The position numbers were made by a program, and so were the translations under genes. The notes below the pieces were generated by a model. The model did not search any database, had not been told where the DNA came from, and was given only the letters and a program-made list of their open reading frames with translations. DNA of 64,000 nucleotides from Candidatus Dojkabacteria bacterium (lineage in GTDB: Bacteria > Patescibacteriota > Dojkabacteria > B142 > JAFGMG01), in assembly GCA_016927655.1 (NCBI GenBank), contig JAFGMG010000001.1, forward strand, positions 34,818 through 98,817. Reading direction: 5' to 3'. This document shows positions 2,369-44,957 of this stretch, piece after piece (the first letter of the stretch is position 1; every line of letters starts with the position of its first letter).

Positions 2369-2775
2369 TTTTTATTCTTTTTAGCTTTTTTATCCTTTTT
2401 ATCTTTTGGCTTATCTTCGAGGCTCAGTTTTAAAAGGGACATTTTAGAATTATCTCCCTTCCTGTTCTCGACTTTATAGATTTTTGTAAATCCGCCAGTT
2501 TTGCTGTTATCCAGCAAAGGTTTGAGATCCTTTATCAAGTAATCATTCAAATCCTTTGTTTTTAGACGTTTTTCCAAAAAGCGCTCTAATTCCATACCTT
2601 CTTTATTTACCAGTCCAAAGAGCAGTTTATCACTAAATTGCTTTACTACTTTTGCTTTTGCAGTTGTAGTTTCAAGACGTTTATAGCGGACAAGCGACTT
2701 TGCCTGAATTATTATCAGAGCATCACGTTCGCTTTTCGGTCTCGATAGGTTGTTTACTTTATTGCCGTGTCTCAT
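2365..2775 (-). CDS. rplQ: 50S ribosomal protein L17 with a Lys-rich C-terminal extension
   Basis: MRHGNKVNNLSRPKSER... is an L17-type start. Sits directly downstream of rpoA. Confidence 0.85.
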   Translation of the reverse strand: MRHGNKVNNLSRPKSERDALIIIQAKSLVRYKRLETTTAKAKVVKQFSDKLLFGLVNKEGMELERFLEKRLKTKDLNDYLIKDLKPLLDNSKTGGFTKIYKVENRKGDNSKMSLLKLSLEDKPKDKKDKKAKKNKK

Positions 2776-3713
2776 TTTTTAAGTGAAAATCCAAAATCAG
2801 TTAATATTTCATTTAATTCTTCAAATGACTTGCTTCCCATTCCCCGATAATTCTCAACCTCTTCATAATCTTTTGAATCTAATTCATTTAGTGTAGCAAT
2901 TCCGGCATTCATCAAAGAATTTGTCAATCTTGTGGACATACTGACCTCGCTGATTTTTATTTTCTCTCCATCTTCCTCTTTTGTACTCTCTTTGCTCATT
3001 GAGGCAACCTCATCGGAATCTCCTCCAAAAATATTCACCAATTTATTTGCGATCATGTCATAAATTTCCGCTGCTTCCAGGAGAACTTCGGCTGGAGTTT
3101 TTACTTTGTTCGTAGTGATATTTAGATTTATCAAATCATAGTCAGTTCTTTGTCCAACTCGAGCTTGTGCAATCTGATACTCAACCCTCACAACAGGATT
3201 AAAGTTCGCATCAATTGGTAAATTCCCGATTTCTTTTCTAATGCTCTCATCAGGATATGCATATCCGATACCCCTTTTTATCCTTATTTCCGCATCAATT
3301 TTGCTTGCAGCTCCTGATAAAGTTGTAATAACAAGATCCTTATTTACAATCTCCACATCAGCATTTGGCTCGATGTCTTTAGCTGTAATTTCGACTACGT
3401 CACCTTTTTTGCCTTTCTTACTTAGCTTCAATACTACGTCATCTTGAGTATGTGAAACTATGGCGAGCTCTTTGATATTTAGTAAAATAGCCAAAACGTC
3501 ATCCTGGACTCCTTCTAAAGAACTATACTCATGATCTACTCCGTTTAGCTTTACTCCAACAACTGCTGCGCCCTCGATTGAAGAAAGAAGTATTCTTCTT
3601 AAAGAATTTGCGACTGTATGTCCGAATCCTTTTGGCAATGGACCGATTTCATATTCACCATGTTCCCCGTCTTCTTTTATTTTCTTTAGTTTAAATTTGT
3701 CAATTTCCAGCAT
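2772..3713 (-). CDS. rpoA: DNA-directed RNA polymerase alpha subunit
   Basis: 313 aa. Has the N-terminal dimerisation domain pattern (GHTVANSLRRILLSS) and lies between S4 and L17 as in the conserved alpha operon. Confidence 0.9.
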   Translation of the reverse strand: MLEIDKFKLKKIKEDGEHGEYEIGPLPKGFGHTVANSLRRILLSSIEGAAVVGVKLNGVDHEYSSLEGVQDDVLAILLNIKELAIVSHTQDDVVLKLSKKGKKGDVVEITAKDIEPNADVEIVNKDLVITTLSGAASKIDAEIRIKRGIGYAYPDESIRKEIGNLPIDANFNPVVRVEYQIAQARVGQRTDYDLINLNITTNKVKTPAEVLLEAAEIYDMIANKLVNIFGGDSDEVASMSKESTKEEDGEKIKISEVSMSTRLTNSLMNAGIATLNELDSKDYEEVENYRGMGSKSFEELNEILTDFGFSLKK

Positions 3714-3754
3714 TTGAATTGAAGTAATAATTAAATCTCAATATTAAATAGTTA

Positions 3755-4354
3755 TTATCTTGAATATAATTCAACTATACTTTGTTCTTTGATACTCTTG
3801 TCCATTTGATCTCTCGTTGGCTCTGCCAAGACTTTCCCGCTTGTTTTGGCCTTCGAAAGCCATTCTGGCGCTTTATGTTTCTCAGCTTTTAACTCTGCAT
3901 CGATTTGATCTGATATCGGAGATTTTGTAAACTTTGACTTCAAGCTGACCTCATCCCCGACATTTAGAATCATCGAAGGAATATCCGCTCTCACGCCATT
4001 AACTTGTACATGACCATGATTTACAAATTGTCTGGCCTGGTTTCTCGTTTTTGCAAATCCAAGCCTATAGACAACATTATCAAGCCTCAATTCAAGTAAT
4101 TGTAGAAATCTCGTTCCAGTATTTCCAGTCGCTTTCTTTGCTTCAGCAAAAAATCTTCTAAATTGTTTCTCAGTCATCAGATACATTCTTTTGACCTTTT
4201 GTTTTTCTCTAAACTGAATAGCAAAGTTAGAAGGTCTTTTCCTGCTAACTGGGTGCTGTCCTGGCAACCCTGTTCTCTTTTTCCAGGCATCACTTCCGAA
4301 TATTGTTGCTTGTTCTCTTCTTTCAAGTTTTCTTTTTGGTCCTGTATATCTCAT
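3755..4354 (-). CDS. rpsD: 30S ribosomal protein S4
   Basis: MRYTGPKRKL..., plus an S4 RNA-binding domain pattern. Confidence 0.9.
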   Translation of the reverse strand: MRYTGPKRKLERREQATIFGSDAWKKRTGLPGQHPVSRKRPSNFAIQFREKQKVKRMYLMTEKQFRRFFAEAKKATGNTGTRFLQLLELRLDNVVYRLGFAKTRNQARQFVNHGHVQVNGVRADIPSMILNVGDEVSLKSKFTKSPISDQIDAELKAEKHKAPEWLSKAKTSGKVLAEPTRDQMDKSIKEQSIVELYSR

Positions 4355-4378
4355 ACTAAGTGATTATTTCAAATTAAA

Positions 4379-4831
4379 CTATTTCTTTGGACTCTTCCTT
4401 GATACTGTCCCTCCATGTTTTACCGGTGTGTAATCAGAAAGTGAGGTAATTTTCAATCCTCCCGATCTAATGCCTTTTACAGCAGCCTGCCTGCCCATTC
4501 CCATACCAGACACAACGACAATCGCTTCTTTTGCTCCGTGTTTAGCTGCTTTAGCAACTGCATCTTCAGCAGCTTTCGTGGCTGCAAACGCAGTACTTTT
4601 TTTCGAACCGGTAAATCCGATTAAACCACCGCTGCTGCTCGCAAGAACGTTCCCATCATAATCAGTTATCGTAACGATGGTGTTGTTGTATCCGCTTTTT
4701 ATTTTAACTTTAACCTTCTGTACATTCTTTTTCTTCGTTTTTTTTGTCGCAACAGGCGCTTTTGCCACCTTCGCTGCTTTGCCCGCCTTTTCAACTTTTA
4801 CATCTTTAGTTTTTTCAGTATTTTTTGCCAT
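4379..4831 (-). CDS. rpsK: 30S ribosomal protein S11 with a Lys/Ala-rich N-terminal extension
   Basis: Core S11 motifs (IVTITDYDGNVLASSSGG...GSKKST). C-terminus is TPVKHGG. Confidence 0.9.
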   Translation of the reverse strand: MAKNTEKTKDVKVEKAGKAAKVAKAPVATKKTKKKNVQKVKVKIKSGYNNTIVTITDYDGNVLASSSGGLIGFTGSKKSTAFAATKAAEDAVAKAAKHGAKEAIVVVSGMGMGRQAAVKGIRSGGLKITSLSDYTPVKHGGTVSRKSPKK

Positions 4832-23252: not shown

Positions 23253-23286
23253 TTATCAAATTATACAGGAAATTCGTCTTGATGAG

Positions 23287-23314
23287 CCTACTCGGACAAA
23301 AGTCGTACCAGATT
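23287..23314 (+). repeat. direct repeat copy 1 (cctactcggacaaaagtcgtaccagatt)
   Basis: One of four near-identical ~30-bp direct repeats read from the sequence. Confidence 0.7.
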
Positions 23315-23342
23315 ATGAAAGCGATAAAATACTTGAATAAAC

Positions 23343-23612
23343 TTATTTATCTAGATTATCGACAAACTTTTTAAGTCTTGTGGAAAGGAGCTCATTTTCA
23401 CCGTCACCGAAATACAATTCCAGAATAATTCTCAAATCCATCAATTCTTTGTCAAAATGTTTATATCTAATATCTGTTTTAGGAATGTCAGTAGCCTTTA
23501 AATAATTGTCTTTTTCTAAGCACTCTCGTAGATGGTCCAGCAAAGCTAATTTACAAAAGTATTTGTTACTCCATTTCCCGTTAAGTAGAGTTTTGAATTG
23601 TTTCTGTTTCAT
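23343..23612 (-). CDS. hypothetical protein (cassette gene)
   Basis: 89-aa ORF lying between repeat copies 1 and 2. Confidence 0.35.
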   Translation of the reverse strand: MKQKQFKTLLNGKWSNKYFCKLALLDHLRECLEKDNYLKATDIPKTDIRYKHFDKELMDLRIILELYFGDGENELLSTRLKKFVDNLDK

Positions 23613-23693
23613 CTATAAAGTATAAAAAGTAATACTGGGCGAATTATAACAAAATTGGCAGGATAGTGGATATTGTTATTGGGTAGGTATTAT

Positions 23694-23726
23694 GACCCTA
23701 GTGGGACAAAAGTCAAACCAGATTTT
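23694..23726 (+). repeat. direct repeat copy 2 (gaccctagtgggacaaaagtcaaaccagatttt)
   Basis: Same repeat family and same orientation. Confidence 0.7.
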
Positions 23727-23784
23727 AATTGGTTTGAAGTGTTTTAAAAAGTTCACAGTTCAGGGTGAACTATGAACTTTTCTG

Positions 23785-23793
23785 TGGTACAAT
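23785..23793 (+). promoter_or_regulatory. extended -10 element TGgTACAAT. The ATG lies 7 nt downstream, consistent with a leaderless transcript
   Basis: Read from the sequence immediately upstream of the 23800 ORF. Confidence 0.4.
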
Positions 23794-23799
23794 AGATCC

Positions 23800-24771
23800 A
23801 TGAAAACATCGGAAAAAATACTAAAATTTATTGAAGAAGAAGGGGAAGCGACACCAAAACAAATCACGACCTACTCCGGTACGACAAATAGGGCTGTATT
23901 TAAACAGCTTGCAAAAATGACAGAGGCAGGGAAATTGATCAAAATAGGTAAACCTCCCAAAGTATTCTATAAGATTAGTATTGAAAAGGATAAAACAGAG
24001 AAAGCTATAAAACTCGACCAAGCTATAGAAAAAGAGATCGAACAGAATTTTCTTTATGTTACACCTTTGGGAGAATATTTTTCTGGTAAAAAGGGTTTTA
24101 TCAAATGGTGCGAGGAAAGGAAACTTAATATAGCACAACAAGCAAAGCAATATTCAAACATGCTTGCAAGAATTTATCGAAGAAAAGATGCTAAGGTGAT
24201 CATTGCAACAGATAAATTTAAAGACACATTTAGTGAAAATTTTCTTAAAGAGGTTTTTTATATTGATTTTTATTCTATCCCGCAGTTTGGGAAGACTAAA
24301 CTTGGACAGCTTTTGCTGTATGCAAAACAAAGCCAAGATAAAAAGAGAATTAAAGAGATTTCAAATATTGTTAGAGATCCTATTGATTATGTGATAAAGA
24401 AATACAAAATTGATGCGATAGGTTATATTCCCCCAACGGTTAGAAGAGAAGTTCAATTTATGAAAGAGCTTGAGAAGAATCTCAATCTACCTCTACCCCA
24501 AATCAAACTAACAAAAATTAAAACTGAGATTATAGTACCTCAAAAGACTTTGAATAAGATTAGAGATAGAATTACCAATGCTAAGAATACTATTATGGTT
24601 GAAGATAAGAGATCGTTTAACAATGTCTTGCTTATTGATGACGCTGCTGGTTCTGGTGCCTCACTTAACGAAACAGCAAAAAAATTACTGAATAGTGGTA
24701 TAGCGAATAAGGTTTATGGGTTGACTATAACAGGCAGCTACAAGGGTTTTGATGTGATTTCTGAAATCTGA
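23800..24771 (+). CDS. winged-helix HTH + phosphoribosyltransferase (PRTase) domain fusion protein
   Basis: N-terminal wHTH-like segment. C-terminal type I PRTase PRPP-binding motif (VLLIDDAAGSGASL). The TGA stop abuts repeat copy 3. Confidence 0.5.
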   Translation: MKTSEKILKFIEEEGEATPKQITTYSGTTNRAVFKQLAKMTEAGKLIKIGKPPKVFYKISIEKDKTEKAIKLDQAIEKEIEQNFLYVTPLGEYFSGKKGFIKWCEERKLNIAQQAKQYSNMLARIYRRKDAKVIIATDKFKDTFSENFLKEVFYIDFYSIPQFGKTKLGQLLLYAKQSQDKKRIKEISNIVRDPIDYVIKKYKIDAIGYIPPTVRREVQFMKELEKNLNLPLPQIKLTKIKTEIIVPQKTLNKIRDRITNAKNTIMVEDKRSFNNVLLIDDAAGSGASLNETAKKLLNSGIANKVYGLTITGSYKGFDVISEI

Positions 24772-24800
24772 CCCTACTCGGACAAAAGTCAAACCAGCTT
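24770..24800 (+). repeat. direct repeat copy 3 (gaccctactcggacaaaagtcaaaccagctt)
   Basis: Same repeat family and same orientation. Confidence 0.7.
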
Positions 24801-24808
24801 CTAAGATG

Positions 24809-25443
24809 GCTCAATTCAGTATCTCAAACTCCAACAACTCTGGGAAATGCTCCTCTATCTGCTCATTGGTTATAGCCTCTAAGTCAAGATCTGTATTTCT
24901 TGAGATTATTTCTTCTAGTCTCTTGGCATTTTTTCGATGTTCTTTAAAGTCTTCCTCTGGAGAACGACTCTTTAAATCCTCGAGTCTTTCAGAAATAGAT
25001 AAAATGCCATTTAATCCAATTCTTATATCACTATAAACGACAATAATAGATCCGATATTTGACTCTTCTATAATATTAGGAATGAACTGCCATTCAGTAT
25101 TTTTTACAATTTCAATTATAGATTTGTCGCATCCTATTTCTTGAACGATTCCAATTAAAGCACTATGCTCGTCATCTCCATGTTTTTTAATAGTTTATTT
25201 TTGAAAACTTATTAAATCCTCTATCTGAGCTGGACTCATGCCGAACTTCGATTGTTTCTGTGGATCGAAGGTTATGGGTTTGGCAATATCATGTAGCAAG
25301 GAAGCTGTGATAATTGCAGATTTATTGAGGTCACGACTAATCCAATGGTCAAGAATTATTTGAGACAAAGCTCCAACTCTTAGCATGTGAGTGACAAGTG
25401 CCGAAGGAGTCTGATATCTTTTATAAACTTCATTTATTGTCAT
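24809..25443 (-). pseudogene. HD-domain phosphohydrolase gene interrupted by an in-frame TAA
   Basis: The 82-aa ORF 25195..25443 carries the HD motif (LLHDIAK) and ends at a TAA. The same frame then continues for ~128 more codons with no Met, down to ~24809. Confidence 0.5.
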
Positions 25444-25511
25444 ATTTCGATCTTAGAGGATTATCGACACGAAAGCAATATTCGGAGAATAGCTGATAGT
25501 AAGGCAAGATG

Positions 25512-25540
25512 GCCCTACTCGGACAAAAGTTAAACCAGAT
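25512..25540 (+). repeat. direct repeat copy 4 (gccctactcggacaaaagttaaaccagat)
   Basis: Same repeat family and same orientation. Confidence 0.7.
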
Positions 25541-25593
25541 AATCAAAACGTTAGATAATGTAATAATATTGGGCAGTCTATACACGACAAAAA

Positions 25594-32822: not shown

Positions 32823-34421
32823 CTAGTTGCGAACGACAATCGCGATTTCTTCTTTATTGAGCCTTTTAAATGGAGCTTCACTGCCTGAATACACCTCAAC
32901 GTTTGAACCACCCAGTTCAACTAGTCTGCCAATGGCCCATTGCTTCTCTCCGTTTGAAAAATCGTAAATTTGAATATCGGGCCCATCCGCCCTTGTCTGC
33001 AAAGCATACTTACTTTCACTGAAAAACAGTGCTTCATTTTCAGCCCGAGCCTTGAAAGCTCTATAAGCGGGATTATTGAAAACTGCTTTCCCGCCTGTGT
33101 AAGCATTTACATAAGTATAAATTGCTGCCTGTTTTGGTTTTGCGTCTGGATTTTGGATCAGCTCCTGAATATACTGTCTGACTAGCTTCCATTCATCATT
33201 TGAACAGCAGGATTTGTCCCAGGCGGTTGGTATTAGATAATAACCGGATCTTGTGTGCGTACCAGGCTTTGAATATAACGGCTTGGTAAGATATGCATTT
33301 TGCCCCCCGAACTGGTCGTCAAGGACAATTTTGTTTATATTTGTCAGATCCGCCTCCCGCATGATTTCTAAGCCCATTGTGATGTCCTGCAACGAAATAC
33401 TGCTCATTTCCATTTTTGAGTTAAAATGGTTGTATAGATCAAGGAGTTTGATCGGATTAGTAAGCGTGCTATTATTTGTAATCAGATGCATAATCTCGGT
33501 GATCAACTGCTGCTGCCTTCTATTTCTATCAAAGTCACTGCTTGTTTTTCTAACCCGTACATAACAGAGAGCCTCTTTGGCATTTAGAAATTGCCTGCCC
33601 TGCGGGAAGTATACGTAATCATAGCCATACCAGTCATTTGGACAGTAATCTCCGATGTTTCTTGGAGAATCTATCCAGACGCCTTTTTCGCCACCGCTAT
33701 CCTCACCGACGATGTTTATCAGCTCGACAAATGTGTCAAGGGTTGTGATGACGTAATGATCTATCTCGTAGCCGGTAATATATGTGACATATTTTTTCAT
33801 GGCATCAGATCCGCTGAATGGGCAGTTATTTTTCTCTGCCATATCGTAGAAGCGGTTGATGTATTTTTGATCTTCTCGTTCCTGATGCATGCATTCTTCT
33901 TCCGCGGTGATGCTTGTATCTCTTGGGATGCTGATGAAATTCACCCTTTTTGTCTCGCGGTCGTAGACAATTTGCATTATAACGTCGATTTTTCTTGTTC
34001 CATCCCACTTGTCTGGGACAAATTCATCACCATCAAACTCTACTCCTCTTGTGTCTATTCCCATTACTAGTACTGAGTAGTAACGTTTTTCGGATACATT
34101 TGGATTGACCAGTTCTGCTGAACGGCTGACTACCTGCCCTGCAACGTTTGAGATTGAATCTGCGCTAGCGTCTTTGAGATTGCCTATGCTGAGTACTAAG
34201 TAGCTAAGGGATGCAACGAGAATTATCATGACAAATGATACGCTCCAATTGGTCCAGTTGATGTTGGATTTCTTTTTGGCTTTTTGGTTGGGGAAAGCTA
34301 TAGATTTAGCTCTAGCTGGTGCCATATCTGGCTCTTCCTGTGATCCTTCATCAATCTCAAATTTTCCCGACCTTTGTGTAAGGCTAATTTTTTTACTTAG
34401 CATGGCAGTATCTAGTTTCAA
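32823..34421 (-). CDS. LytR-CpsA-Psr (LCP) family glycopolymer ligase with a long C-terminal extension
   Basis: Cytoplasmic N-terminus, a single TM, then LCP motifs (VLVMGIDTRG... DVIMQIVYD... FISIPRDT). Confidence 0.7.
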   Translation of the reverse strand: MKLDTAMLSKKISLTQRSGKFEIDEGSQEEPDMAPARAKSIAFPNQKAKKKSNINWTNWSVSFVMIILVASLSYLVLSIGNLKDASADSISNVAGQVVSRSAELVNPNVSEKRYYSVLVMGIDTRGVEFDGDEFVPDKWDGTRKIDVIMQIVYDRETKRVNFISIPRDTSITAEEECMHQEREDQKYINRFYDMAEKNNCPFSGSDAMKKYVTYITGYEIDHYVITTLDTFVELINIVGEDSGGEKGVWIDSPRNIGDYCPNDWYGYDYVYFPQGRQFLNAKEALCYVRVRKTSSDFDRNRRQQQLITEIMHLITNNSTLTNPIKLLDLYNHFNSKMEMSSISLQDITMGLEIMREADLTNINKIVLDDQFGGQNAYLTKPLYSKPGTHTRSGYYLIPTAWDKSCCSNDEWKLVRQYIQELIQNPDAKPKQAAIYTYVNAYTGGKAVFNNPAYRAFKARAENEALFFSESKYALQTRADGPDIQIYDFSNGEKQWAIGRLVELGGSNVEVYSGSEAPFKRLNKEEIAIVVRN

Positions 34422-34517: not shown

Positions 34518-37500
34518 CTAGTCTGGACTCGGGGTAAATTTGACATCACTTCCCCCTCCATTTTGGACTCTGATGAAGTATCCTCTACCATCCACTATGT
34601 TGTAGTCATTTCCATACAATAATTCATCTTCTAGCACTACCGATGTATACAGTCCTCCTTCATACTTACTCACTACGTCTGCTTCTATACCCTGATTGCT
34701 CATTTCTCTTAGTAAACTCTCCCCAGTATAGTCTTTATCTTTAGATATTATTCCCACTAAATTCCAACCATTTCCAATCCCAATTTCCACATTGTCATCT
34801 ATCTTCTTTCCCGTATATGCCACATCATGTTGCCCATAAGAGAGTACAAATAATCCTTGTCCGGGAATTAAGTTAAAATCGTTTGAAAATTCCACATCAC
34901 CTTCTCTTACTGAAAATATTATCCACTGTCCTCCCTCATATTTCGCAATATGCTTGATATTCGCTCCTTGCTCCAACCAGGAATCCATCAGATCCCCAGC
35001 CATTTTCACCTCTTCATTCACTAACTCAAGATCGATCAAATTCCATCCATCTACTAAAGAGAACCCCTGTGCTTCATCAACTTTCTCCAAAGTTATATTC
35101 TGAATATCCTCTTGGAAAGGTTCCACTGGATCCTTTTGTCCATTTTTATTCACATCATCAAAAAATTTCACGGTCGCAGAATCCCCCTCGACAATGAATA
35201 CCTTTTCATATGTAGAACCCTTGTCTGTTATCTCATAGACACCTGATTCAACTATTTCAAGCTTTGTATCAGTATCTTTTGCCGGAACTTCTTCAGTCCC
35301 AGCATAATCACCTTTATCTTCGACATTTTCATCTTGGGCTCTCACCGGGCTAATAAATAGCCCTAAAACATCATTTGCAGAAGGTGTGTAATTATCTGCA
35401 AATACTCTGGTATTCCCATTCAAACTATGAACTATCTGATTAAACTGATCAGCATTCTGAATATCCCATTGCTGAAGAGCTGCTCCATTTGGGAGACCAT
35501 TTACAACAATTTGAACGCCAATTTGGAAATTACCGACATCAACATTTCCAAATTCATCTATAGCACCCTCAGGGAAGATATATTGAATATCTATAGTATC
35601 AATACCTAATTCAGCCAATTGAGGATTCACAGTAAAACTATAGTTAGTAGTATTGGCAGGATTAGCATAATCAATAAAGAAAGTTGCTCCTTCATCCGGA
35701 TCGCCATTTATTCCATATGTTGCTGATGGTGTGCCATGCACACGTCGATCTCCTGACTCAAAACTAATCAAAGGGATTCTCCTTCCATCCGCTGTCTCGA
35801 TATATGAGGTAACTAATGCTTGATCAAGAGTAACTAGTGCCATACAAGCTCCAGCCCCAAATCCATGTGCTTGCGTATTAACATATGGATAGTCAGCCCC
35901 TAGACTTACATCATCTATCCAAGAGTATTCATCTCCAGGTCGCAAACCCTCTATGTTATCGTTAAATTCCAGAGCTGCAGCATATGCATTTTGTTCCTTT
36001 CCTTCATAATGATCAACAGGTACCACAGCCTTTACAACTTCGACTGTATCATTGCCAACTCTTATGTCTTCTCTGTTATAGGCTTCAGTTATATCCGTAG
36101 AGGTTCTTGGGCATGATCTCCCATCCGCAACAATAAAAACTTCTCCATTCCTCGTAATGCAGCTTCTCTCTATAGTATTGTCCCCAACCCCCAAACAATC
36201 ACAATTTGAATTAAGGTTACCCCCTACTTCACTACATTTATTTACTATCGCTATACTACATCTACTATTAGCTCCTATACCTTCAACACATGTATTCCTG
36301 TCATCTAAACAGACTACCTGGCCATTGTCACAATAATTTGTTCCCGTTCCTCCATTGCAACCACAAGTCACACCCCATCTACCATCATTATGCCCTTCAC
36401 AAGTTGAAGATGGAACGTAAGCATAATCCTCAACCAAGCCCTTTTGATCATCAGTTCTGTGTAGGGGGATCCCCGTTATTTCAACAAATTGGTCCTCTCC
36501 TATCGCCTGTATTTGGATGCGCACGAACTCTTCTTGTTCTTCTTTTGTCATGGCAGCCATATCATAATCATCGTCGCCGCTATAGTTACCAGAGGGGGAA
36601 TAACCACATGCATTTTCTTCACAAGCTCCATAACCAGTGACAGTGATGCCAACACAATAACTTCTTCCAACACCACAAGAATGACATTTTGTCCCTCCTA
36701 GACATTGAGTATCATTTTCACACCCCTTTTTGCATTCATAACCTGAAGGCCCAGCTTCTTGAACATTATCTGGTTGAATTTCTGGTGCTGGCGGTGGAGT
36801 TTGTGCTTCTTGCTCTTGTGGTATAGGTTGTATGGGATTCCCACCAATACCTGGGCATTCTACTAATCCCTCCGCCCTTCCACTATTACAGCTCCCACCC
36901 AATTCGACAAATCTTCCCCAATTATCCCAACTTACACAACCGTAATAATTTGAATCGGCTGGACAGGTGCATTGCACAGGATTCGCGAATTGACACTGTA
37001 CTTGAGTTTGAGCACTAACCTGTGTGATTAGACTCATTGAATTCTCATTGAGAATTCTTGTATTTGGACTTGAAGTCTTCTCATCTTCATCACCCACGAT
37101 ATCTTCGAAGATAATGTTTACTAGTGGTTTATAGTTCTCTAATTTGAACTTATTTCTATACCTTACTTGCTCTTCATTGCTTGTTTCTAACCTTAATACT
37201 GTATCTGCTTTTACTGTATACTTAATTCCCTGCTGATTTCTAAAACTTGTCACATCCAATGTCCAGCCACCTTCCTTATTTGTATATGTACTTAGTTTCC
37301 CACTTTCTTCTATCTCTTCCTCATTATTCCCATACTTGAATAAGGTTGCTTCAACATAAATATCTCCTTTACCATTTCCCTCCTCATCTATTATCTTCCC
37401 ATACATCGGATCTGGTGTTTCTAAATCCTCATTCACAATTAACGTCTTTATCTGGGGTAGTTTGTTCCCTTCTGCATCTGTATCCTTACTCAGTATCCTT

Positions 37501-37871
37501 CCTGCTACTAATACTTCATACTCTTTCTCTGGTTCTAGTCCTGTCACACTTACATGATGTATGTGCCTCTTTTGTAGTCCTTCTTCCTTTATCTTGTACT
37601 CTCCTGTCTCTGTATCTTGTTCTACATCTCTATCATCATAAAACGTTCCTACTTTTCTTCCTCCTCCCTCTTTCACCAGTAATCTCCCAGTCGTTTTTTC
37701 TTTTGTGTACCACATATATGTTACTCCGGTCTCTGTTACATTTGTGACCTGAATATTCTCAATGTCCATCTTTCGGTCTTGATATATCAAATAGCTAATA
37801 GTCCCTGACAACAAAACTAACAAAGAAAAAAAGAGGACATACACAACATACTGAAGAAATCGACTTTTCAT
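34518..37871 (-). CDS. giant secreted/surface protein (1117 aa). N-terminal signal/TM and FN3-like domain, Cys-rich central region, two C-terminal ~90-aa GWNL...YEGG repeats
   Basis: Paralogue of 40552..43326, with conserved N- and C-termini and a divergent middle. Has a DxNxNGxxD calcium-binding-like motif. Confidence 0.6.
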   Translation of the reverse strand: MKSRFLQYVVYVLFFSLLVLLSGTISYLIYQDRKMDIENIQVTNVTETGVTYMWYTKEKTTGRLLVKEGGGRKVGTFYDDRDVEQDTETGEYKIKEEGLQKRHIHHVSVTGLEPEKEYEVLVAGRILSKDTDAEGNKLPQIKTLIVNEDLETPDPMYGKIIDEEGNGKGDIYVEATLFKYGNNEEEIEESGKLSTYTNKEGGWTLDVTSFRNQQGIKYTVKADTVLRLETSNEEQVRYRNKFKLENYKPLVNIIFEDIVGDEDEKTSSPNTRILNENSMSLITQVSAQTQVQCQFANPVQCTCPADSNYYGCVSWDNWGRFVELGGSCNSGRAEGLVECPGIGGNPIQPIPQEQEAQTPPPAPEIQPDNVQEAGPSGYECKKGCENDTQCLGGTKCHSCGVGRSYCVGITVTGYGACEENACGYSPSGNYSGDDDYDMAAMTKEEQEEFVRIQIQAIGEDQFVEITGIPLHRTDDQKGLVEDYAYVPSSTCEGHNDGRWGVTCGCNGGTGTNYCDNGQVVCLDDRNTCVEGIGANSRCSIAIVNKCSEVGGNLNSNCDCLGVGDNTIERSCITRNGEVFIVADGRSCPRTSTDITEAYNREDIRVGNDTVEVVKAVVPVDHYEGKEQNAYAAALEFNDNIEGLRPGDEYSWIDDVSLGADYPYVNTQAHGFGAGACMALVTLDQALVTSYIETADGRRIPLISFESGDRRVHGTPSATYGINGDPDEGATFFIDYANPANTTNYSFTVNPQLAELGIDTIDIQYIFPEGAIDEFGNVDVGNFQIGVQIVVNGLPNGAALQQWDIQNADQFNQIVHSLNGNTRVFADNYTPSANDVLGLFISPVRAQDENVEDKGDYAGTEEVPAKDTDTKLEIVESGVYEITDKGSTYEKVFIVEGDSATVKFFDDVNKNGQKDPVEPFQEDIQNITLEKVDEAQGFSLVDGWNLIDLELVNEEVKMAGDLMDSWLEQGANIKHIAKYEGGQWIIFSVREGDVEFSNDFNLIPGQGLFVLSYGQHDVAYTGKKIDDNVEIGIGNGWNLVGIISKDKDYTGESLLREMSNQGIEADVVSKYEGGLYTSVVLEDELLYGNDYNIVDGRGYFIRVQNGGGSDVKFTPSPD

Positions 37872-37964
37872 TTCAGGAGAATTTAATAATTATCTAAAAA
37901 TAGATTACCCAAAAAGAAGATTTGCGTCAATTTGATATAATTAAGTAAATTTAGACTAGACATT

Positions 37965-38699
37965 ATGCTAAAAGTATCAGAATTAATTGCGGAGATAGAA
38001 AATACAAAAGTCTTAGATGGCTTATATCTTGAGGTAGGGGAAGGCCAGATCCATGTTTTACTAGGTCCAAATGGCTCGGGCAAAAGTAGCCTTTCAAAAG
38101 TCATTATGGGAGTGGGCGGGTACGAAGTGACAAGTGGAAGTATAGAGTTTGAGGGCAAAGATATCACAAATATAAGCCCAGATGAACGAGCGAGAATGGG
38201 GATATTCTTGGCGAATCAATACCCAATTGAAGTCCCAGGAGTTGGTCTCGCGAATTTCTTGCGACTTGCATACAATTCCAGATTTAGTGATGACAAAAAT
38301 AAACTATCAGTAACAAAATTTAAGAAATTGTTACAAGAAAAAGCAAAACTCGTAGATCTAGATGAAAAATTCCTGGACCGCAATCTCAATGAAGGCTTCT
38401 CAGGCGGAGAAAAGAAAAAAAGTGAGATCCTCCAAATGGCAGTCCTTGAGCCAAAGCTCGCAATTCTTGATGAGACCGACTCCGGACTAGATGTAGACGC
38501 ACTCAAACAAGTCTTTAAAGCAGTCAGCAAAATCAAAAAAGAAAATAAAGATATGACACTTCTAGTCATTACCCACTACGAAAGAGTATTTGAATACATC
38601 ACTCCAGACAAAGTACACGTGATGAAAGATGGAAAAATCATAGAAACAGGAGGCAAAGAATTAGCAGATAAAATCCAAAAACATGGCTTCAAAAAATAA
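37965..38699 (+). CDS. sufC: Fe-S cluster assembly ATPase SufC
   Basis: ABC ATPase with Walker [10 protein letters not shown], signature LSGGEKKK, and Walker [11 protein letters not shown]. Confidence 0.9.
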
Positions 38700-40098
38700 A
38701 CCCGCAATTGGCGGAAAAACCGAATACAAGGAGAAATATGGCTTTTCAGACCATATAAAGTATGCAAAAAAATTCCCAAAAGGCATCAATGAAGATGTGG
38801 TGAGGCAGATCTCAGCACTCAAAAATGAACCCAAATGGATGCTGGATATCAGACTGCGAGCTTACAAAGAGTTCATATCCAGGCCTATGCCAAAATGGGG
38901 AGCAGATCTCTCGCAAATTGACTTTGACAATATCCACTACTACGCCCAGGCAAGTGAAGGCGCCAAAAATGACTGGGAAGACGTTCCAGAAAAAATCAAG
39001 AGAACTTTTGATAAACTCCAAATTCCGCAAAGCGAAAGGAAATTCCTCGCAGGGACGGCCACACAATACGAATCAGAAGTGGTTTATAGCAACCTCAAAA
39101 AACAATGGTCTGATCTTGGCATAGTTTTCGAAGACACAGATACAGGATTACGAGAACATCCAGAGATTTTCAAAAAATATTTTGGAAAACTAATTCCATA
39201 CAAAGACAACAAATTCGCAGCACTCAATACTGCCGTTTGGAGTGGCGGGAGTTTCATCTACATACCAAAAGGAGTCAAGCTCGATATGCCACTACAGACA
39301 TACTTCAGGATCAATCTTGCAAATATGGGGCAGTTTGAAAGGACTTTAATAATCGCAGAAGAGAGGAGTAGTATATCCTACATAGAGGGGTGCTCGGCAC
39401 CAATGTATTCACGAGACTCACTCCACGCAGCAGTTGTGGAGATTTTTGTCCTCCCTGGTGCCAAAGTAAGATACACTACAATTCAAAACTGGTCAGACAA
39501 TGTATACAACCTTGTCACCAAACGGGCAGCAGCCTACAAAGACTCCAGAATGGAATGGATCGATTGCAATCTAGGCTCAAAAGTCACCATGAAATATCCT
39601 GCCGTCTGGCTCAAAGGTGCAGGCGCACATGGCGAAGTGCTCTCAATTGCATACGCCGACAAAGGACAAGTACTAGACGCAGGGGCAAAAATAGTTCACC
39701 ATGCGCCGCACACATCAAGCTTGATCAATTCCAAATCAATCTGCCTAAATGGAGGAAGAACAAGCTACAGAGGGCTTCTCAAAGCCACAGAAAAAGCAGC
39801 CAATTCTAAATCAAAAGTAATTTGTGACGCATTGATCTTCGATGATCAATCCAGAACAGATACATATCCAACAAACGAAATCGACAATCCATCATTCTCG
39901 CTCGAGCACGAGGCAAGCGTGAGCAAAGTTTCCACCGAGCAACTAGAATATTTAATGAGTAGAGGTTTGAGCGAAGAAGATGCATCAGCACTCATCGTTT
40001 CAGGCTTTCTAGAGCCAGTTGCCAAAGAACTACCAATTGAATATGCAGTTGAACTCAATGCTTTGATTAATATGAGCATGGAGGATAGCGTTGGTTAA
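38683..40098 (+). CDS. sufB: Fe-S cluster assembly protein SufB
   Basis: 471 aa with a SufB/SufD beta-helix core. Overlaps the sufC stop. Confidence 0.9.
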
Positions 40099-40555
40099 TT
40101 TGAAATTTAGTAAACAAATGCAAAAACTAGAAAAACTAAAAAATGAAATACTTATCGATACAACTGGGCAAACCAAGGCATATTTCCATGGGACTAGAGA
40201 TGACCAATTCAAAGGGAAGTTGGTTTTCGAAGTAAAAACTCCAAATATCAAGCATGAGGTGATTATCAAAGCAGTTCTGGAAGGCAGTTCAGAGCTAGAT
40301 CTCGAAGCAATTCTCAAAGTTCCAAAAGGTGCCAAAAATACAGACACTTATCTCAAACTCGAATGCCTACTACTTTCAGATAAAGCTAAAGCACGGGTGA
40401 TCCCCAGTCTGGAAATCATGGAAGATGCGGTCAAATCCGGCCATGGAGCGACGGTCAGTTCGGTCAATAAAGAACACATGGACTATTTAATGAGTCGGGG
40501 CCTAAGCAAAGACAATGCCAAAAAGATTATTATTGAAGGATTTTTAGATTTTTAG
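40091..40555 (+). CDS. sufD: short SufD-like protein (C-terminal SufBD-type domain only)
   Basis: 154 aa. Its C-terminus ([23 protein letters not shown]) parallels the SufB C-terminus ([23 protein letters not shown]). Confidence 0.5.
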
Positions 40556-43326
40556 TTCGGTGTGGGAGTAAATTTAACATCACTTCCCCCTCCATTTTGC
40601 ACTCTGATGAAATATCCGCTCCTTTCGAAGATGTTGTAGTCATTTCCATAGAGAGTGCTGTCTTCATATACTATGCTTGTGTAGAGTCCTCCTTCATACT
40701 TACTTACTACATCTGCTTCTATTCCTGCTTCATTCATATCTCTTACTAGCTCCTCTGCTGTGTAAGGGGCTTCATTTGTATATACTCCTACCAGATTCCA
40801 TCCGTTTCTGACTCTAAATGGTATTGGTTCATCAAATTTGTTTCCTTTGATCTTCGCTTCTACTGGTGTGTAGTTTAGTACAAAGTAGCTTTGTCCTGGG
40901 ACTATGTTGTAGTCATTTGAGAACTCCTGCTCATTTTCTCTCTTGGTATACATCTCAAAGCCACTGTCTGTGTATTTGGCGATATGCTTGATATCTGCTC
41001 CTTGGTTATTGAAGTGATCTAGGAGTTCACTTGCTGTACTTATTCCATCACTGCTAATGAGCGGCATTGTTATCAGGTTCCAGCCTGCGCTTAGATTGTA
41101 TGTTGCTACTTCACTGTCTTTCTTCAAGCTTAGTGATGTGTAGTCATCCAGCACTGGTTCATCTTTGTCTTTCTTCCCATTTCCGTTTGTATCGATGAAT
41201 AACCTGATCTCTGCTCTATCAGCTCCATCTAGATTCACTGCAAATTCACTTACTGGCTGTTCGAAGTTATCCCCGTAGTACACTACATAGTCTCCTGATT
41301 CGGTCGTTACTAACTTGTCTGTTGCTGCTGTAATTGGGCTCATCAGAGTTCCCGGAAGATCGCTTTCTCCTAATACCTTCTCCCTTCCTGACTCATCGAC
41401 TGCGAAACGCGATGTACCTGCCCTGATAGCAGTACAGGCTGTTTGAAATTCTGGATGTGTACCGATGATACAGGGGTATCCACCATAATCTCCAATTTCT
41501 AATGCATAAGTAGGGTAGACAGCCAAAATTTCAGACAATGTAGCTTCTGGCGAAATACACTGTCTATTATTTCCGGCAGTTGTTTTACGAAATACCGAGC
41601 CATTGTTCTCCGGACTACAATATAAACACCCTACTGGATAATTTAAACCTTGAAAAATACACGTTTCGTCGTCTACATTTCCATTATCTACAACCTCATC
41701 AGCTCTACAACGAATCATCCCATACTCTTCATTAATATAATCAGCAAGGTAGTTTAAAACTCCATCATAATTAACCCTGATAACCTTTGATGGGCTAATT
41801 GTACAACCATTATTACCATCCGAGATCACGTTAACCGTGACCTCCCACACATTATCTCCTACTCCTGTTGGAGTATCCGGGTCGAAATATTCGCATCCTG
41901 GTTTATAATCATATTCAATTCCAAGTCCTGGATGATCATAAGTGCAAACACCACTACCCTCTGCAAGAACAATATTAGCAACACCGGAGAGAGTCAAAGT
42001 CGGTGTGTTACCTACAGTCTCAGCTCCGTTAATAATAGCTGTATTGTTTCCCGCTGGAGCACCAACAGCACCGGTGGCAGCAGGGGCACCCCCGGCTTCC
42101 TGTCCTGCATATTTCCTCAATATCCCGCTTGCTTCTGCTGATACCTGCCCGCCAGTCGGGATACACCGGTCACAATATGATGCTGCTGTCCAGGGACAAC
42201 TCGAATCCTGCAAGCCACAAGGATTCTGGCTATTTACCTTGTGACATTTTCTGCTCCCTAAGTTCCCATCTGCATTACAAGGTTCATCATATGAATGATC
42301 ACAGGATTTTACTTCTCCCCCTTCACAAGTGGCAGCAGTTGGGGGATTGGAACTCCCATTCACCTGCACCCATTCACCACTCTCGCAAACATAAGTCCCA
42401 AAAGGCTTTGTAGTATCAGCATTATTTACCGCAAGAAAGCCATTCCCATAACACGCACCACCAGCCTCACAGGCACTTGCACCGCAGCCATCGGCTGTAG
42501 ACGCAAAAACCTTGCCGATAAGACCAGTACTCGAAGCAGAACCTTCTTCAACTACATCATCTCCTAGATAAATCACAGGTAATGGTTTGTACTCAACCAA
42601 TGTATAACTTGTAGAATCAGACATTTCGTCAGTTAATACATCGATTTTAATCAGGGTTGTGTCTAATTTCTGAAAAGTATTTCCGCTCACATCCCTAATA
42701 TTGGCTAAATCTGCTGCCCAGCTATGAGTTTCACTAATGACTGTAGAATATAGCTGACTTTTTATTTCAAAATCTCCCCGATTCACAAGATAGAAATAAA
42801 CAATCCCATCATTTGGCGGCTCTTTGGTAAGGTCTGAGGACAAAACACTTCCATAAACTGGATCTGGAGTAACTAAATCTTCATTAACCGACAGCGTTGT
42901 AATCCCAGGCAGGGCCACTCCATTCTCATCTTTGTCTACATTCAATAACCGGCCGACCACACTCACCTCATATTCTTTTTCCGGTTCCAGTCCTCTGATA
43001 CTTATATGATGAGTATTACGTTTCTGCGCACCAACGGGTTTCAGATCATACTCTCCAGTTGCGACATTTTGCTCAATATCCCGGTCATCATAAAATACTT
43101 CATCCATCCACATCCCGCCAACCTCGCGAATTCTTACTTTCGCTACTAGCTTTTCTTCAGAATACCAGCTGAAAGCAGCTCCGGAATCCGTTACATTTGA
43201 AACGATGGGATTTTCAATCCTGATATTTTGGTCTTTATAAATTGCAAACCCAAACAAAATTGCAAAAATAGCAATAATGCCTGCAGCAAAAAGTCCAATT
43301 ATAAGAGATGTCGTCTTCTTTTGCAT
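40552..43326 (-). CDS. giant secreted/surface protein paralogue (924 aa)
   Basis: Shares the N-terminal FN3-like module and the C-terminal double GWNL repeat with 34518..37871, including a near-identical last ~60 aa. The Cys-rich middle differs. Confidence 0.6.
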   Translation of the reverse strand: MQKKTTSLIIGLFAAGIIAIFAILFGFAIYKDQNIRIENPIVSNVTDSGAAFSWYSEEKLVAKVRIREVGGMWMDEVFYDDRDIEQNVATGEYDLKPVGAQKRNTHHISIRGLEPEKEYEVSVVGRLLNVDKDENGVALPGITTLSVNEDLVTPDPVYGSVLSSDLTKEPPNDGIVYFYLVNRGDFEIKSQLYSTVISETHSWAADLANIRDVSGNTFQKLDTTLIKIDVLTDEMSDSTSYTLVEYKPLPVIYLGDDVVEEGSASSTGLIGKVFASTADGCGASACEAGGACYGNGFLAVNNADTTKPFGTYVCESGEWVQVNGSSNPPTAATCEGGEVKSCDHSYDEPCNADGNLGSRKCHKVNSQNPCGLQDSSCPWTAASYCDRCIPTGGQVSAEASGILRKYAGQEAGGAPAATGAVGAPAGNNTAIINGAETVGNTPTLTLSGVANIVLAEGSGVCTYDHPGLGIEYDYKPGCEYFDPDTPTGVGDNVWEVTVNVISDGNNGCTISPSKVIRVNYDGVLNYLADYINEEYGMIRCRADEVVDNGNVDDETCIFQGLNYPVGCLYCSPENNGSVFRKTTAGNNRQCISPEATLSEILAVYPTYALEIGDYGGYPCIIGTHPEFQTACTAIRAGTSRFAVDESGREKVLGESDLPGTLMSPITAATDKLVTTESGDYVVYYGDNFEQPVSEFAVNLDGADRAEIRLFIDTNGNGKKDKDEPVLDDYTSLSLKKDSEVATYNLSAGWNLITMPLISSDGISTASELLDHFNNQGADIKHIAKYTDSGFEMYTKRENEQEFSNDYNIVPGQSYFVLNYTPVEAKIKGNKFDEPIPFRVRNGWNLVGVYTNEAPYTAEELVRDMNEAGIEADVVSKYEGGLYTSIVYEDSTLYGNDYNIFERSGYFIRVQNGGGSDVKFTPTPN

Positions 43327-43416: not shown

Positions 43417-44598
43417 ATGGAAATCAAGAATATAAAAAAGCACTTCCCAATCCTCAGCCAAAATCCAGATTTTACATATCTGGACAATGCTGCAACTACC
43501 CAGAAAACCAAAAAAGTCATCAAATCAATCAGCAGATTCTACCGCCAGCACAATGCAAATGTGCACAGAGGTATTTATGAGCTGAGCGAAAAAGCAACTG
43601 AGAAATACGAAGAGGTGAGAAAAACTGCAGCGAAATTTATCGGGGCAAAGGAAAAAGAAATAGTTTTCACATCAGGAACGACAGATTCGTTCAACCTATT
43701 GGCAAGGAGTTTGGGCAAAACTCCAGAGATTGTGAAGAAAAACCCCAAAATTCTAATCACTGAAATCGAGCACCATGCAAACTATCTGCCCTGGCGGGAA
43801 ATCAGCGATGATATTCACTTTGCCAGGCAGAAAGAAGATTTTACGATTGAATGGCCTGAAGGTGACTTTGACATAGTCTCAATCACTCATGCAAGCAACG
43901 TAACCGGCCTTATGCCAGATGCAAAAGAAGTCAGAAAGAAATATCCGAAAGCACTATTTATACTCGATGCAGCACAATCAATTGCGCACAAAAAAATAGA
44001 CGTCAAAAATCTGGATGTTGATTTTCTGGCATTTTCAAGTCACAAAATGTACGGGCCGACCGGTATTGGAGTTTTGTATGGGAAACAAGAACTGCTGGAA
44101 AAACTATACCCTCTCAAAGTCGGCGGCGGTATGATAGCAGAAGTCACAAAGAAAAGCGCCAAATGGGCGGAGCTTCCTGAAAGACATGAAGCTGGAACGC
44201 CACCAATCGCGCAGGCAATAGGCCTTCAAGCAGCAATAGAATTCCTGGAAAAAATCGGCATGGAAAAAATTGAAGAATATGAGAAAGAACTTCGCAAATA
44301 CGCTTTTGAAGAATTGTCCAAGATCAAAGGCCTGAAACTTTTCCACCCAAATTTAGAAATTGATGCCGGGACCGTGTTTAGTTTTCAGCTTGAGGGGATT
44401 CATCCTCATGATATCGCAGAGATGCTAAGCGAAAGAAATATTGCGGTTCGAGCCGGCCATCATTGCTGCCAGATTCTGCACCGGGAAGTATTGAAAATCC
44501 CCGCGTCAACCCGGGCAAGCTTTGCCGTTTATAATACAAAAGACGATGTTGATAAGCTTGCCAAAAGATTAAATGAAATTGTAAAAATATTTACGTGA
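43417..44598 (+). CDS. sufS: cysteine desulfurase SufS (class V aminotransferase)
   Basis: PLP-lysine region SSHKMYGPTGIGVL, and a C-terminal RAGHHC active-site Cys loop. Confidence 0.85.
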   Translation: MEIKNIKKHFPILSQNPDFTYLDNAATTQKTKKVIKSISRFYRQHNANVHRGIYELSEKATEKYEEVRKTAAKFIGAKEKEIVFTSGTTDSFNLLARSLGKTPEIVKKNPKILITEIEHHANYLPWREISDDIHFARQKEDFTIEWPEGDFDIVSITHASNVTGLMPDAKEVRKKYPKALFILDAAQSIAHKKIDVKNLDVDFLAFSSHKMYGPTGIGVLYGKQELLEKLYPLKVGGGMIAEVTKKSAKWAELPERHEAGTPPIAQAIGLQAAIEFLEKIGMEKIEEYEKELRKYAFEELSKIKGLKLFHPNLEIDAGTVFSFQLEGIHPHDIAEMLSERNIAVRAGHHCCQILHREVLKIPASTRASFAVYNTKDDVDKLAKRLNEIVKIFT

Positions 44599-44957
44599 AT
44601 GACCAGATCAGCCGTCAAAATCTAATTGATCACTACAAAAACCCCCGAAATGTCGGGGTACTTAAAAAAGCCACAAATACAGTTGAGTGCTCAAATGTAA
44701 CTTGCGGGGATGAGGTTAAAGTAAGCCTCCTTATAAAAGCCGGGAAAATCGAAGAGATCAGACATGAAAGTGCAGGATGTGTGATGAGCGTCGCAGGCAT
44801 TTCAATACTTAGCGAAGAACTGATCGGCATGGAAGTTGAAAAGGTTAAAAAATTAGATAAAGATGCACTCCAGGAAATCCTCGGAATAGAAATCACTCCT
44901 TCCAGGCTTAAATGCGCTATGCTTGGACTGGAAGCAATAAAGAAAGCGCTTAATTGA
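44595..44957 (+). CDS. sufU: SufU/IscU-like Fe-S scaffold
   Basis: NPRNVG...C..CGD...HESAGC pattern. 4-nt overlap with sufS. Confidence 0.8.
   Translation: MNDQISRQNLIDHYKNPRNVGVLKKATNTVECSNVTCGDEVKVSLLIKAGKIEEIRHESAGCVMSVAGISILSEELIGMEVEKVKKLDKDALQEILGIEITPSRLKCAMLGLEAIKKALN

Follow-up and report, generated by a model that had tools for sequence, protein, structure and literature searches.

Bacteria of the Candidate Phyla Radiation (CPR) are thought to live attached to hosts, through a machinery that remains largely unknown. Conserved N- and C-termini enclosing a hypervariable, recombining center characterize surface proteins of the flagellin and pilin type, and the tufA and tufB genes of the enterobacteria are dispersed paralogues in concerted evolution by gene conversion. 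Segmental, non-reciprocal transfer between paralogous surface-protein genes is found in the pilE/pilS system of Neisseria and the vlsE system of Borrelia, in which a single expression site is accompanied by many silent cassettes without promoters and by near-identical flanking repeats, and variants arise within populations. Tandem C-terminal modules of ~80-90 amino acids (aa) with a conserved Gly-Trp are present in the Listeria GW, SLH, and CWB2 types of wall-binding module. Large Cys-rich extracellular proteins that vary between strains, with a proposed role in attachment, have already been noted in CPR genomes (Peribacteria; Anantharaman et al. 2016; PMC4736985). The present analysis compares with these systems two genes, referred to here as A and B, which are located in a window (the whole stretch analyzed) of 64,000 nucleotides (nt) from Candidatus Dojkabacteria bacterium (GTDB lineage Bacteria; Patescibacteriota; Dojkabacteria; B142; JAFGMG01), corresponding to positions 34,818-98,817 of the forward strand of contig JAFGMG010000001.1 in assembly GCA_016927655.1.

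Gene A (34518..37871, minus strand; an open reading frame, ORF, of 1117 aa, whose own database entry is P0001) and gene B (40552..43326, minus strand; an ORF of 924 aa, P0004) are paralogues with ends that are similar in BLASTP, and they bracket, in direct orientation, the genes sufC and sufB and a short sufD-like gene (37965..40555, plus strand; NCBIfam and Pfam SUFBD_core), just as the initial annotation of this locus had described. The two genes are probably anciently diverged members of a modular family of surface proteins which evolves through module-wise recombination, and the likeness of their 3' ends would be the product of an old segmental conversion together with purifying selection.

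This organization resembles that of the flagellins and pilins in having conserved, recombining ends and an unalignable, presumably exposed center, but there is no similarity of sequence or fold, a predicted membrane anchor is present instead of a filament-forming coiled coil, and no sign of polymerization was seen. As in Neisseria and Borrelia, segments appear to have been transferred non-reciprocally between paralogous surface-protein genes, although none of the other features listed above for those systems was seen for A and B. The likeness to tufA and tufB lies in the exchange of tracts between two full-length paralogues located a few kb or more apart, which for A and B involves only ~190 bp at the 3' end and an old event (~80% identity). 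The Cys-rich proteins of the Peribacteria (PMC4736985) are similar in size, in their N-terminal export or anchor signal, and in their high Cys content, a likeness by description only, whereas the present family is defined by an FN3-like stalk, a sandwich with a calcium (Ca) loop, and two modules with a GWNL motif, and some of its members have no Cys at all (for example, L009_2633).

The sole strong match between A and B in blastn lies at the extreme 3' ends and spans 186 nt at 79.6% identity, which agrees with the initial estimate of 75-80% over ~150 nt. The A copy of this tract occupies positions 34531..34714 (minus strand; nt 3158-3341 of A) and the B copy, a direct repeat at a distance of 6034 nt, positions 40565..40748 (minus strand; nt 2579-2762 of B). 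An independent repeat search recovered the tract at the same spacing as two blocks, D2 (103 nt, 83%) and D3 (88 nt, 75%). Apart from some short families of 35-46 nt, the 64-kb window has no other long repeat, and the longest exact matches inside the tract are of 23, 20, and 20 nt. At the protein level, the last ~57-66 aa, which had been taken to be almost identical, are in fact ~76-82% identical. Elevated identity of the DNA had been expected at both termini, and it is confined to the 3' tract, given that the similarity of the 5' ends amounts to no more than 162 nt at 67%, nothing beyond what the conservation of the protein provides.

The case for conversion is carried mainly by the use of synonymous codons. 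Over the last ~65 codons, identical residues of A and B are encoded by the same codon in 33 of 50 cases, against 21.2 expected from the codon usage of the genes themselves (z 3.6; z 3.5-3.6 for the tract across the analyses), whereas z is -0.4 to 0.6 in the conserved N-terminal block and in the C-terminal region outside the tract (Fisher's test, tract against the other conserved parts, p 0.024). A further codon analysis yielded z 0.2-0.8 for the N-terminal and C1 regions, and z 0.2 for the region of the Ca loop and the first GWNL module. The proportion of synonymous differences (pS, Nei-Gojobori) between A and B is ~0.74 overall, that is, saturated, and falls to 0.43-0.57 in the last windows. 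Given that the excess of shared codons is confined to the tract, the two copies of the tract have a younger common ancestor than the other parts of the genes. When the same 66 codons were compared in the 21 pairs formed by seven genes of the family, an excess was found only for A-B (z 3.5) and for B-L001_799 (z 3.6), while other pairs with 58-73% aa identity over these codons gave z values of about 0, those of A-L001_799 (72%) and L001-L002 (73%) being 0.2-1.2; because pairs of like aa identity show no excess, a generic codon constraint in this module does not explain the signal.

The profile of similarity along gene A is also discordant. Over the 180 aa that precede the tract, A is 30-43% identical to nearly all the sampled members of the family (24% in one case), the clade of B being no closer than the others, while over its final 86 aa it most resembles B (70-71%), followed by the nearest relatives of B. 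Over the 66 codons the nt identity of the tract is 74%, the same as that of B with its counterpart in another genome, and at synonymous sites the tract is about as diverged as B is from P0002, whose two genomes have housekeeping proteins of only 70-78% identity. The conversion event is thus old, since the divergence of the tract is like that found between genomes. Segmental gene conversion would have homogenized A and B over their final ~62 codons at an age similar to that of the split from the nearest sequenced genome, and strong purifying selection on the second GWNL module would have kept the 3' ends alike since then.

A different account does without conversion and attributes the likeness of the 3' ends to strong purifying selection on the second GWNL module, or to its co-evolution with a shared, lineage-specific partner. 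It has some merit, in that this module is the most conserved segment of the family, the aromatic-x-Pro ending of the C-terminus is conserved family-wide, and a pair of genes at locus L009 keeps 88-93% aa identity in the module with z values of only 1.2-2.3. Against it stand the z of 3.5-3.6 for A-B, compared with 0.2-1.2 in pairs of comparable aa identity, and the discordant profile, in which distant members are as near as the B clade to the preceding 180 aa of A; the account is on balance unlikely, although it keeps an appreciable chance of being right.

Several points do weigh against the reading of an old conversion within a family of surface proteins. The signal rests on only ~50 conserved codons, and the second module is the most conserved part family-wide (~50% against a background of 37%), so selection accounts for part of the similarity of the tract. 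The near-random synonymous codons of the L009 pair, despite 88-93% identity in the module, indicate that selection or co-evolution alone can keep copies within a genome alike. In neighbor-joining bootstraps the leaf nearest to the second module of A fell in the B clade in 58 of 100 replicates and was B itself in 10 of 100, and because this support is only moderate, the claim of conversion leans mainly on the codon test and its controls. The core of B (aa 257-668) has no usable structural model, with a predicted local distance difference test score (pLDDT) below 50 from AlphaFold2 (AF2), the neighborhood of LCP and glycosyltransferase genes around A is limited to one sub-clade of the family, and the localization and function of A and B are inferences from sequence and model.

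The reading of module-wise recombination receives evidence from the relatives, in which the initial annotation had proposed that chimeric alleles be looked for. Protein P0002 is encoded at the position of A in another Dojkabacteria genome (order sufC / gene / LCP / ... / GT1), with housekeeping neighbors that are 59-78% identical to their counterparts in the window, and its C-terminal 270 aa are of the B type (86-89% identity). When the codons of B and P0002 were compared in sliding windows, a sharp breakpoint appeared near aa 650. Upstream of it, the same codon is used at 33 of 93 identical residues (0.35), which is random even in an FN3 block of 70% identity, and downstream at 148 of 222 (0.67; z 8.1; upstream against downstream, p 4.5e-7), while the cores are unrelated and the N-termini synonymously saturated. 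The fraction of shared codons between the flanking genes of the two genomes is 0.51 for the LCP gene and 0.44 for the MraY-like gene; as the C-terminus of B and P0002 lies above both, this segment has moved between genes or lineages after the genomes diverged.

Similar patterns are seen in the tandem pairs of other loci. At L007 the first ~180 codons of the two genes are mostly 81-94% identical in nt, with dips to ~70%, and at the other end identity is 84-97% over the final ~100 codons, reaching 94-97% in the final ~80 (z up to 5.5), with an unalignable core in between. In the L009 pair, an identity of ~76% extends over 489 nt on the 5' side and over 745 nt on the 3' side of a core that is again unalignable; the L003 pair yielded no conversion signal. 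Module-wise recombination is a trait of the family on evolutionary timescales, by which the N-terminus, the core, and the C-terminus would come to carry separate histories.

The initial annotation had gone further, taking the conserved ends and variable cores as a sign of gene conversion or cassette exchange, with surface or antigenic variation as a consequence. Of these, the conversion stands, as an old event at the 3' end. Active exchange, in which the ends would serve as handles for switching the Cys-rich core and sufCBD would occasionally be deleted, can draw on the recurrence of conserved ends and variable cores at L007 and L009 (with ends of up to 94-97% nt identity at L007), on the mosaic alleles between genomes, and on the strain variation of the large Cys-rich CPR proteins (PMC4736985). 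The locus itself offers it little. A tblastn search of the window with all the segments of A and B returned no third copy and no silent cassettes, only the two full-length genes, each with its predicted transmembrane (TM) anchor, and high-identity handles do not flank the variable part, as the two copies of the 3' tract differ by 20% and are nowhere identical over more than 23 nt, and the 5' ends reach at most 67% over 162 nt. No similarity was seen between the upstream regions of the two genes (score 10, with 4.6 +/- 3.8 for shuffled sequences), a scan for promoters and terminators did not rise above shuffles, and no inverted repeats were found in the 64-kb window at the length threshold used. 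Alleles are furthermore stable in the relatives, in which the alleles of the family either are the same on 3-5 contigs of several sources or differ by 1-3 residues, as do the mates of family members in 90% clusters, and P0038 recurs unchanged on seven contigs from several samples; for A and B themselves, no strain variants were found in the databases searched, which included an exact-sequence contig look-up for B. Antigenic variation by active switching is, given this, very improbable here.

Diversification by a diversity-generating retroelement was considered and rejected separately, as no template/variable pair of ~100-150 nt occurs in the 64-kb window, in which no search aimed at a reverse transcriptase was made. 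The deletion of sufCBD through recombination between the copies, which had also been suggested, has the right geometry in the direct repeats, but the tracts are a poor substrate, the event is unlikely, and there is no sign that it has occurred; it would, moreover, remove most of A together with sufCBD.

The two genes could also be products of a recent duplication, with an explosive divergence of the cores under positive selection and ends that have not yet diverged. Tandem pairs are indeed common in the family (L002, L003, L005, L007, and L009), and L003 has two copies against one at L006 in what appears by eye to be the same FtsH-PolA context. Against this, A and B are saturated at synonymous sites in their N-terminal and C1 regions (pS ~0.74; z 0.2-0.8), which implies that the duplication is ancient and only the 3' tract younger, and the cores are wholly unalignable, so that a recent origin is improbable. 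A chimera of metagenome assembly, in which two alleles or strains of one gene were brought together on one contig, might be suspected because the source is a contig of a metagenome-assembled genome (MAG) and because the exact B protein is absent from the contig index. It is barely credible, considering that the side of A (sufC-A-LCP-...-GT1) is syntenic with an independent genome, that the GC content is uniform (0.39-0.42) over the region, that A and B are far too divergent to be alleles, and that multi-copy loci are the norm in the family. An old segmental conversion between ancient paralogues remains the account that best fits the observations.

The architecture of the two proteins follows a common plan, and most of its elements had been recognized in the initial annotation. 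The conserved N-terminal region of A (37077..37853, minus strand, as are all the segments below) comprises a hydrophobic helix (aa ~7-29) and two beta-sandwiches, of which the first is FN3-like and the second reaches to aa ~265. The TM helix is seen both in the AF2 model of B (aa 2-33 of the full-length prediction) and in the alignment of the family, and it would anchor the protein in the membrane. In B, the stalk of two beta-sandwich domains (aa 34-255; 42562..43227) was identified with AF2 and Foldseek, with pLDDT of ~75-97, mostly above 85. The FN3-like character of this region falls under the thresholds of Pfam, with PF16656 (Pur_ac_phosph_N) in A at 29.6 bits (E 1.1e-6), just under the gathering cutoff of 30, and PF00041 (fn3) at 17.2 bits (E 0.006) under a cutoff of 25, and B scoring 20.1 and 13.2, respectively, also below the gathering thresholds. 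A seven-stranded Ig-like beta-sandwich is supported by the AF2 model, in which pLDDT is mostly 90-97 at aa 34-150 of B, and by Foldseek matches of the N-terminal domains to tandem FN3 domains (Ihog and tenascin, probability 0.99-1.0) and to Gram-positive pilins (probability 0.84-0.94). Between A and B, this region (aa 27-268) has 37% identity in BLASTP (E 7e-46), with a range of 37-41% across the comparisons.

The variable core of A (aa 271-850; 35322..37061) contains all 27 Cys of the protein, 26 of them in aa 293-587 and one at aa 676, followed by a Cys-poor stretch, and that of B (aa 257-668; 41323..42558) has 22 Cys between aa 281 and 631. The two cores have no significant similarity in BLASTP, in agreement with the initial statement that they differ entirely, although the "dozens" of Cys attributed to them turn out to be 27 and 22. 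Among the cores compared in BLASTP, the sole piece shared by that of A is a Cys motif of 45 aa with 55% identity to P0003, and that of B has partial homologues only in P0038 and P0043 among the sampled proteins (36% over 150-165 aa).

The C-terminal region is the better conserved end, with 46% identity between A and B over aa 848-1117 of A (BLASTP, E 5e-70). In A it consists of a beta-sandwich with a Ca loop and the first GWNL module (34782..35321), which belong to a divergent lineage and include an EF-like loop at aa 906-917 (35121-35156), and of the second GWNL module (aa 1031-1117; 34521..34781), whose best match in the family is its genome-mate B (70-71%). In B the equivalent tri-domain (40555..41322) joins the Ca-loop sandwich, with its loop at aa 712-723 (41158-41193), to two alpha/beta GWNL modules, so that the two ~90-aa modules reported earlier are present in both proteins. 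The loop, D-x-N-x-N-G-x-x-D-x-x-E, is invariant or nearly so in 31 members of the family, and its 12 residues have the acidic or amide residues at positions 1, 3, 5, 9, and 12 and the Gly at position 6 of an EF-hand, which as a motif makes it a predicted Ca-binding loop, as had been supposed. AF2 models the C-terminal portion of full-length B (aa 669-924) with pLDDT of 80-97, and its last 250 aa alone with pLDDT 89.9 and a predicted template modeling score (pTM) of 0.78, as a beta-sandwich followed by two alpha/beta modules.

The GWNL modules share with the Listeria GW modules and with SLH and CWB2, all of monoderm surface proteins, the tandem arrangement of ~80-90 aa at the C-terminus and the conserved Gly-Trp, and A and its two nearest relatives adjoin LCP and glycosyltransferase genes. 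They have neither the GW/SH3_8 profile nor the SH3-like all-beta fold of the Listeria type, and no Pfam family was found for them in any of 26 sequences. Sequence searches of the PDB with the C-terminal region, and a Foldseek search of viral models with that of B, also returned no match.

The size of the family was established by searching exhaustively with a profile of the 266 C-terminal positions, which returned 1209 cluster representatives at E <=1e-3 and 260 at <=1e-30; a word-indexed search with full-length A found at least 4 proteins. Among the best 150 of the 1209 representatives, most have 600-1700 aa, and the module is at the extreme C-terminus in nearly all of them. In a sample of 22 members, which were read by eye and not scanned against family libraries, most appear to have a TM helix and an FN3-like stalk, and the centers appear to be Cys-rich, SH3b-like, beta-helix-like, enzyme-like, or free of Cys. 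BLASTP among the cores of 14 members returned only two short matches of ~45 aa, and for the cores of A and B no more than a few partial matches were seen in the sampled proteins. The closest database entries to A and B are annotated as Candidatus Dojkabacteria, P0001 being described as an FN3 domain-containing protein, and matches in the genome collection came from four Dojkabacteria MAGs, one MAG labeled Saccharibacteria, and one Roizmanbacteria protein, which matches only the N-terminal region of A and has no GWNL motif. In other organisms, more remote pairs of GWNL modules terminate proteins that carry cohesin, TIG, and BACON domains. The family is large and unannotated, with a distribution mainly in the Dojkabacteria and in some other CPR bacteria, and its proteins would each comprise a membrane helix, a stalk of two Ig/FN3-like sandwiches, a lineage-specific and often disulfide-rich center, and a C-terminal end in which a beta-sandwich, bearing the EF-hand-like Ca loop, precedes the two alpha/beta GWNL modules. 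Neither the family, nor its mosaic evolution, nor its C-terminal module was met in limited literature searches or in the Pfam, NCBIfam, and PDB libraries.

Two departures from this plan were observed. One gene of the L009 pair (2633-4603, 656 aa, equal to P0041) has zero Cys in its core, while its tandem neighbor has 24, from which it follows that Cys-richness belongs to particular cassettes and not to the family. In P0039 and P0072 the GWNL tri-domain lies inside the protein, and the ~360 aa beyond it form a C-terminal extension, enzyme-like from sequence alone, which suggests that the chassis may also bear C-terminal payloads.

Such a plan is consistent with the display of A and B outside the cell, where the core would be the exposed part that determines specificity, and the conserved ends would form a common scaffold or anchor, with possibly a binding partner shared by all the paralogues of a genome. 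More tentatively still, and with rather more doubt than confidence, the FN3 stalk and the Ca-sandwich-GWNL end might constitute a CPR-wide display scaffold of >1200 sequence clusters, in which unrelated central cassettes (Cys-knot-like and, by reading, SH3b-like, beta-helix-like, or enzyme-like) are swapped at the conserved ends, with the GWNL tri-domain being an undescribed fold that tethers or co-assembles all the paralogues of a cell to one lineage-specific partner, such as a wall glycopolymer or a host receptor. If so, the shared partner would account for the concerted C-terminal evolution of paralogues within genomes, and the family would be a principal determinant of the specificity of attachment to hosts or substrates in the Dojkabacteria. 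Being abundant, unannotated, and module-exchanging, with a C-terminal module that has no Pfam model or solved relative, the family is in any case a candidate for surface specificity in this group and a target for structural and binding studies. For annotation, the locus teaches that direct repeats at the ends of paralogous surface genes need not signal an active switch.

The suf genes located between A and B are most likely bystanders. Their identification is based on NCBIfam models, with sufC at 37965-38699 (plus strand; TIGR01978, 325.5 bits, above the cutoff of 212.8) and sufB at 38683-40098 (plus strand; TIGR01980, 688.1 bits, above the cutoff of 346.4). The SufD-like ORF of 154 aa (40091-40555, plus strand) has a partial match to TIGR01981 of 112.4 bits, below the cutoff of 222, and this match is confined to the C-terminal half of the SufD and SufBD core models. 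The three genes are divergent from A and convergent with B, the stop of which overlaps the SufD-like gene by 4 nt. On the far side of B, and divergent from it, two ORFs of 393 and 120 aa (43417-44598 and 44595-44957, plus strand) were read by eye from their translations as putative sufS and sufU, and on this reading B appears to interrupt a suf cluster (sufCBD / B / putative sufS/sufU). Among the relatives, an association with suf is found only in the window and L001, and a functional link between the family and SUF was rejected, as the relatives sit in unrelated housekeeping contexts; the position of A and B around sufCBD is most likely incidental.

Directly downstream of A lies a gene for an LCP protein (LytR_cpsA_psr, Pfam, E 9.5e-26; 32823..34421, minus strand), and the order of family gene and then LCP is also found in L001 and L009. 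The full LCP/MraY-like/GT1 neighborhood is restricted to a single sub-clade, made up of the window, L001, and L009, and for this reason, while it hints at the cell envelope, it is not evidence for the whole family and was set aside as weak evidence of function. Other members adjoin varied housekeeping genes or surface proteins with DUF2341 or VWA domains; one relative, for example, is beside RecO and a class II tRNA synthetase, and another beside a CCA-adding enzyme and an RNase J-like gene. In the Dojkabacteria genomes that carry them, the tandem pair of L003 (2505-8805) and the single gene of L006 (9851-13387) have by eye the same FtsH-[family gene]-PolA context, which points to a possible local duplication or loss of family members.

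The NCBI version of A (P0001) has 1083 aa, with a start 34 codons past the first ATG, so that the TM helix is lost (37770-37871, minus strand). The longer start is probably the correct one, because the N-terminal hydrophobic helix is kept in B and in the relatives of the family that were compared. Elsewhere in the window, at 23281-25553, four copies of a 46-nt motif with the core CCCTACTCGGACAAAAGTnAAACCAGAT were observed, 70-80% identical to the reference copy and spaced by 410-1076 nt, within a low-GC stretch (0.33) with several small ORFs, and these could be copies of a regulatory site, or else a small feature of a mobile element or defence island.

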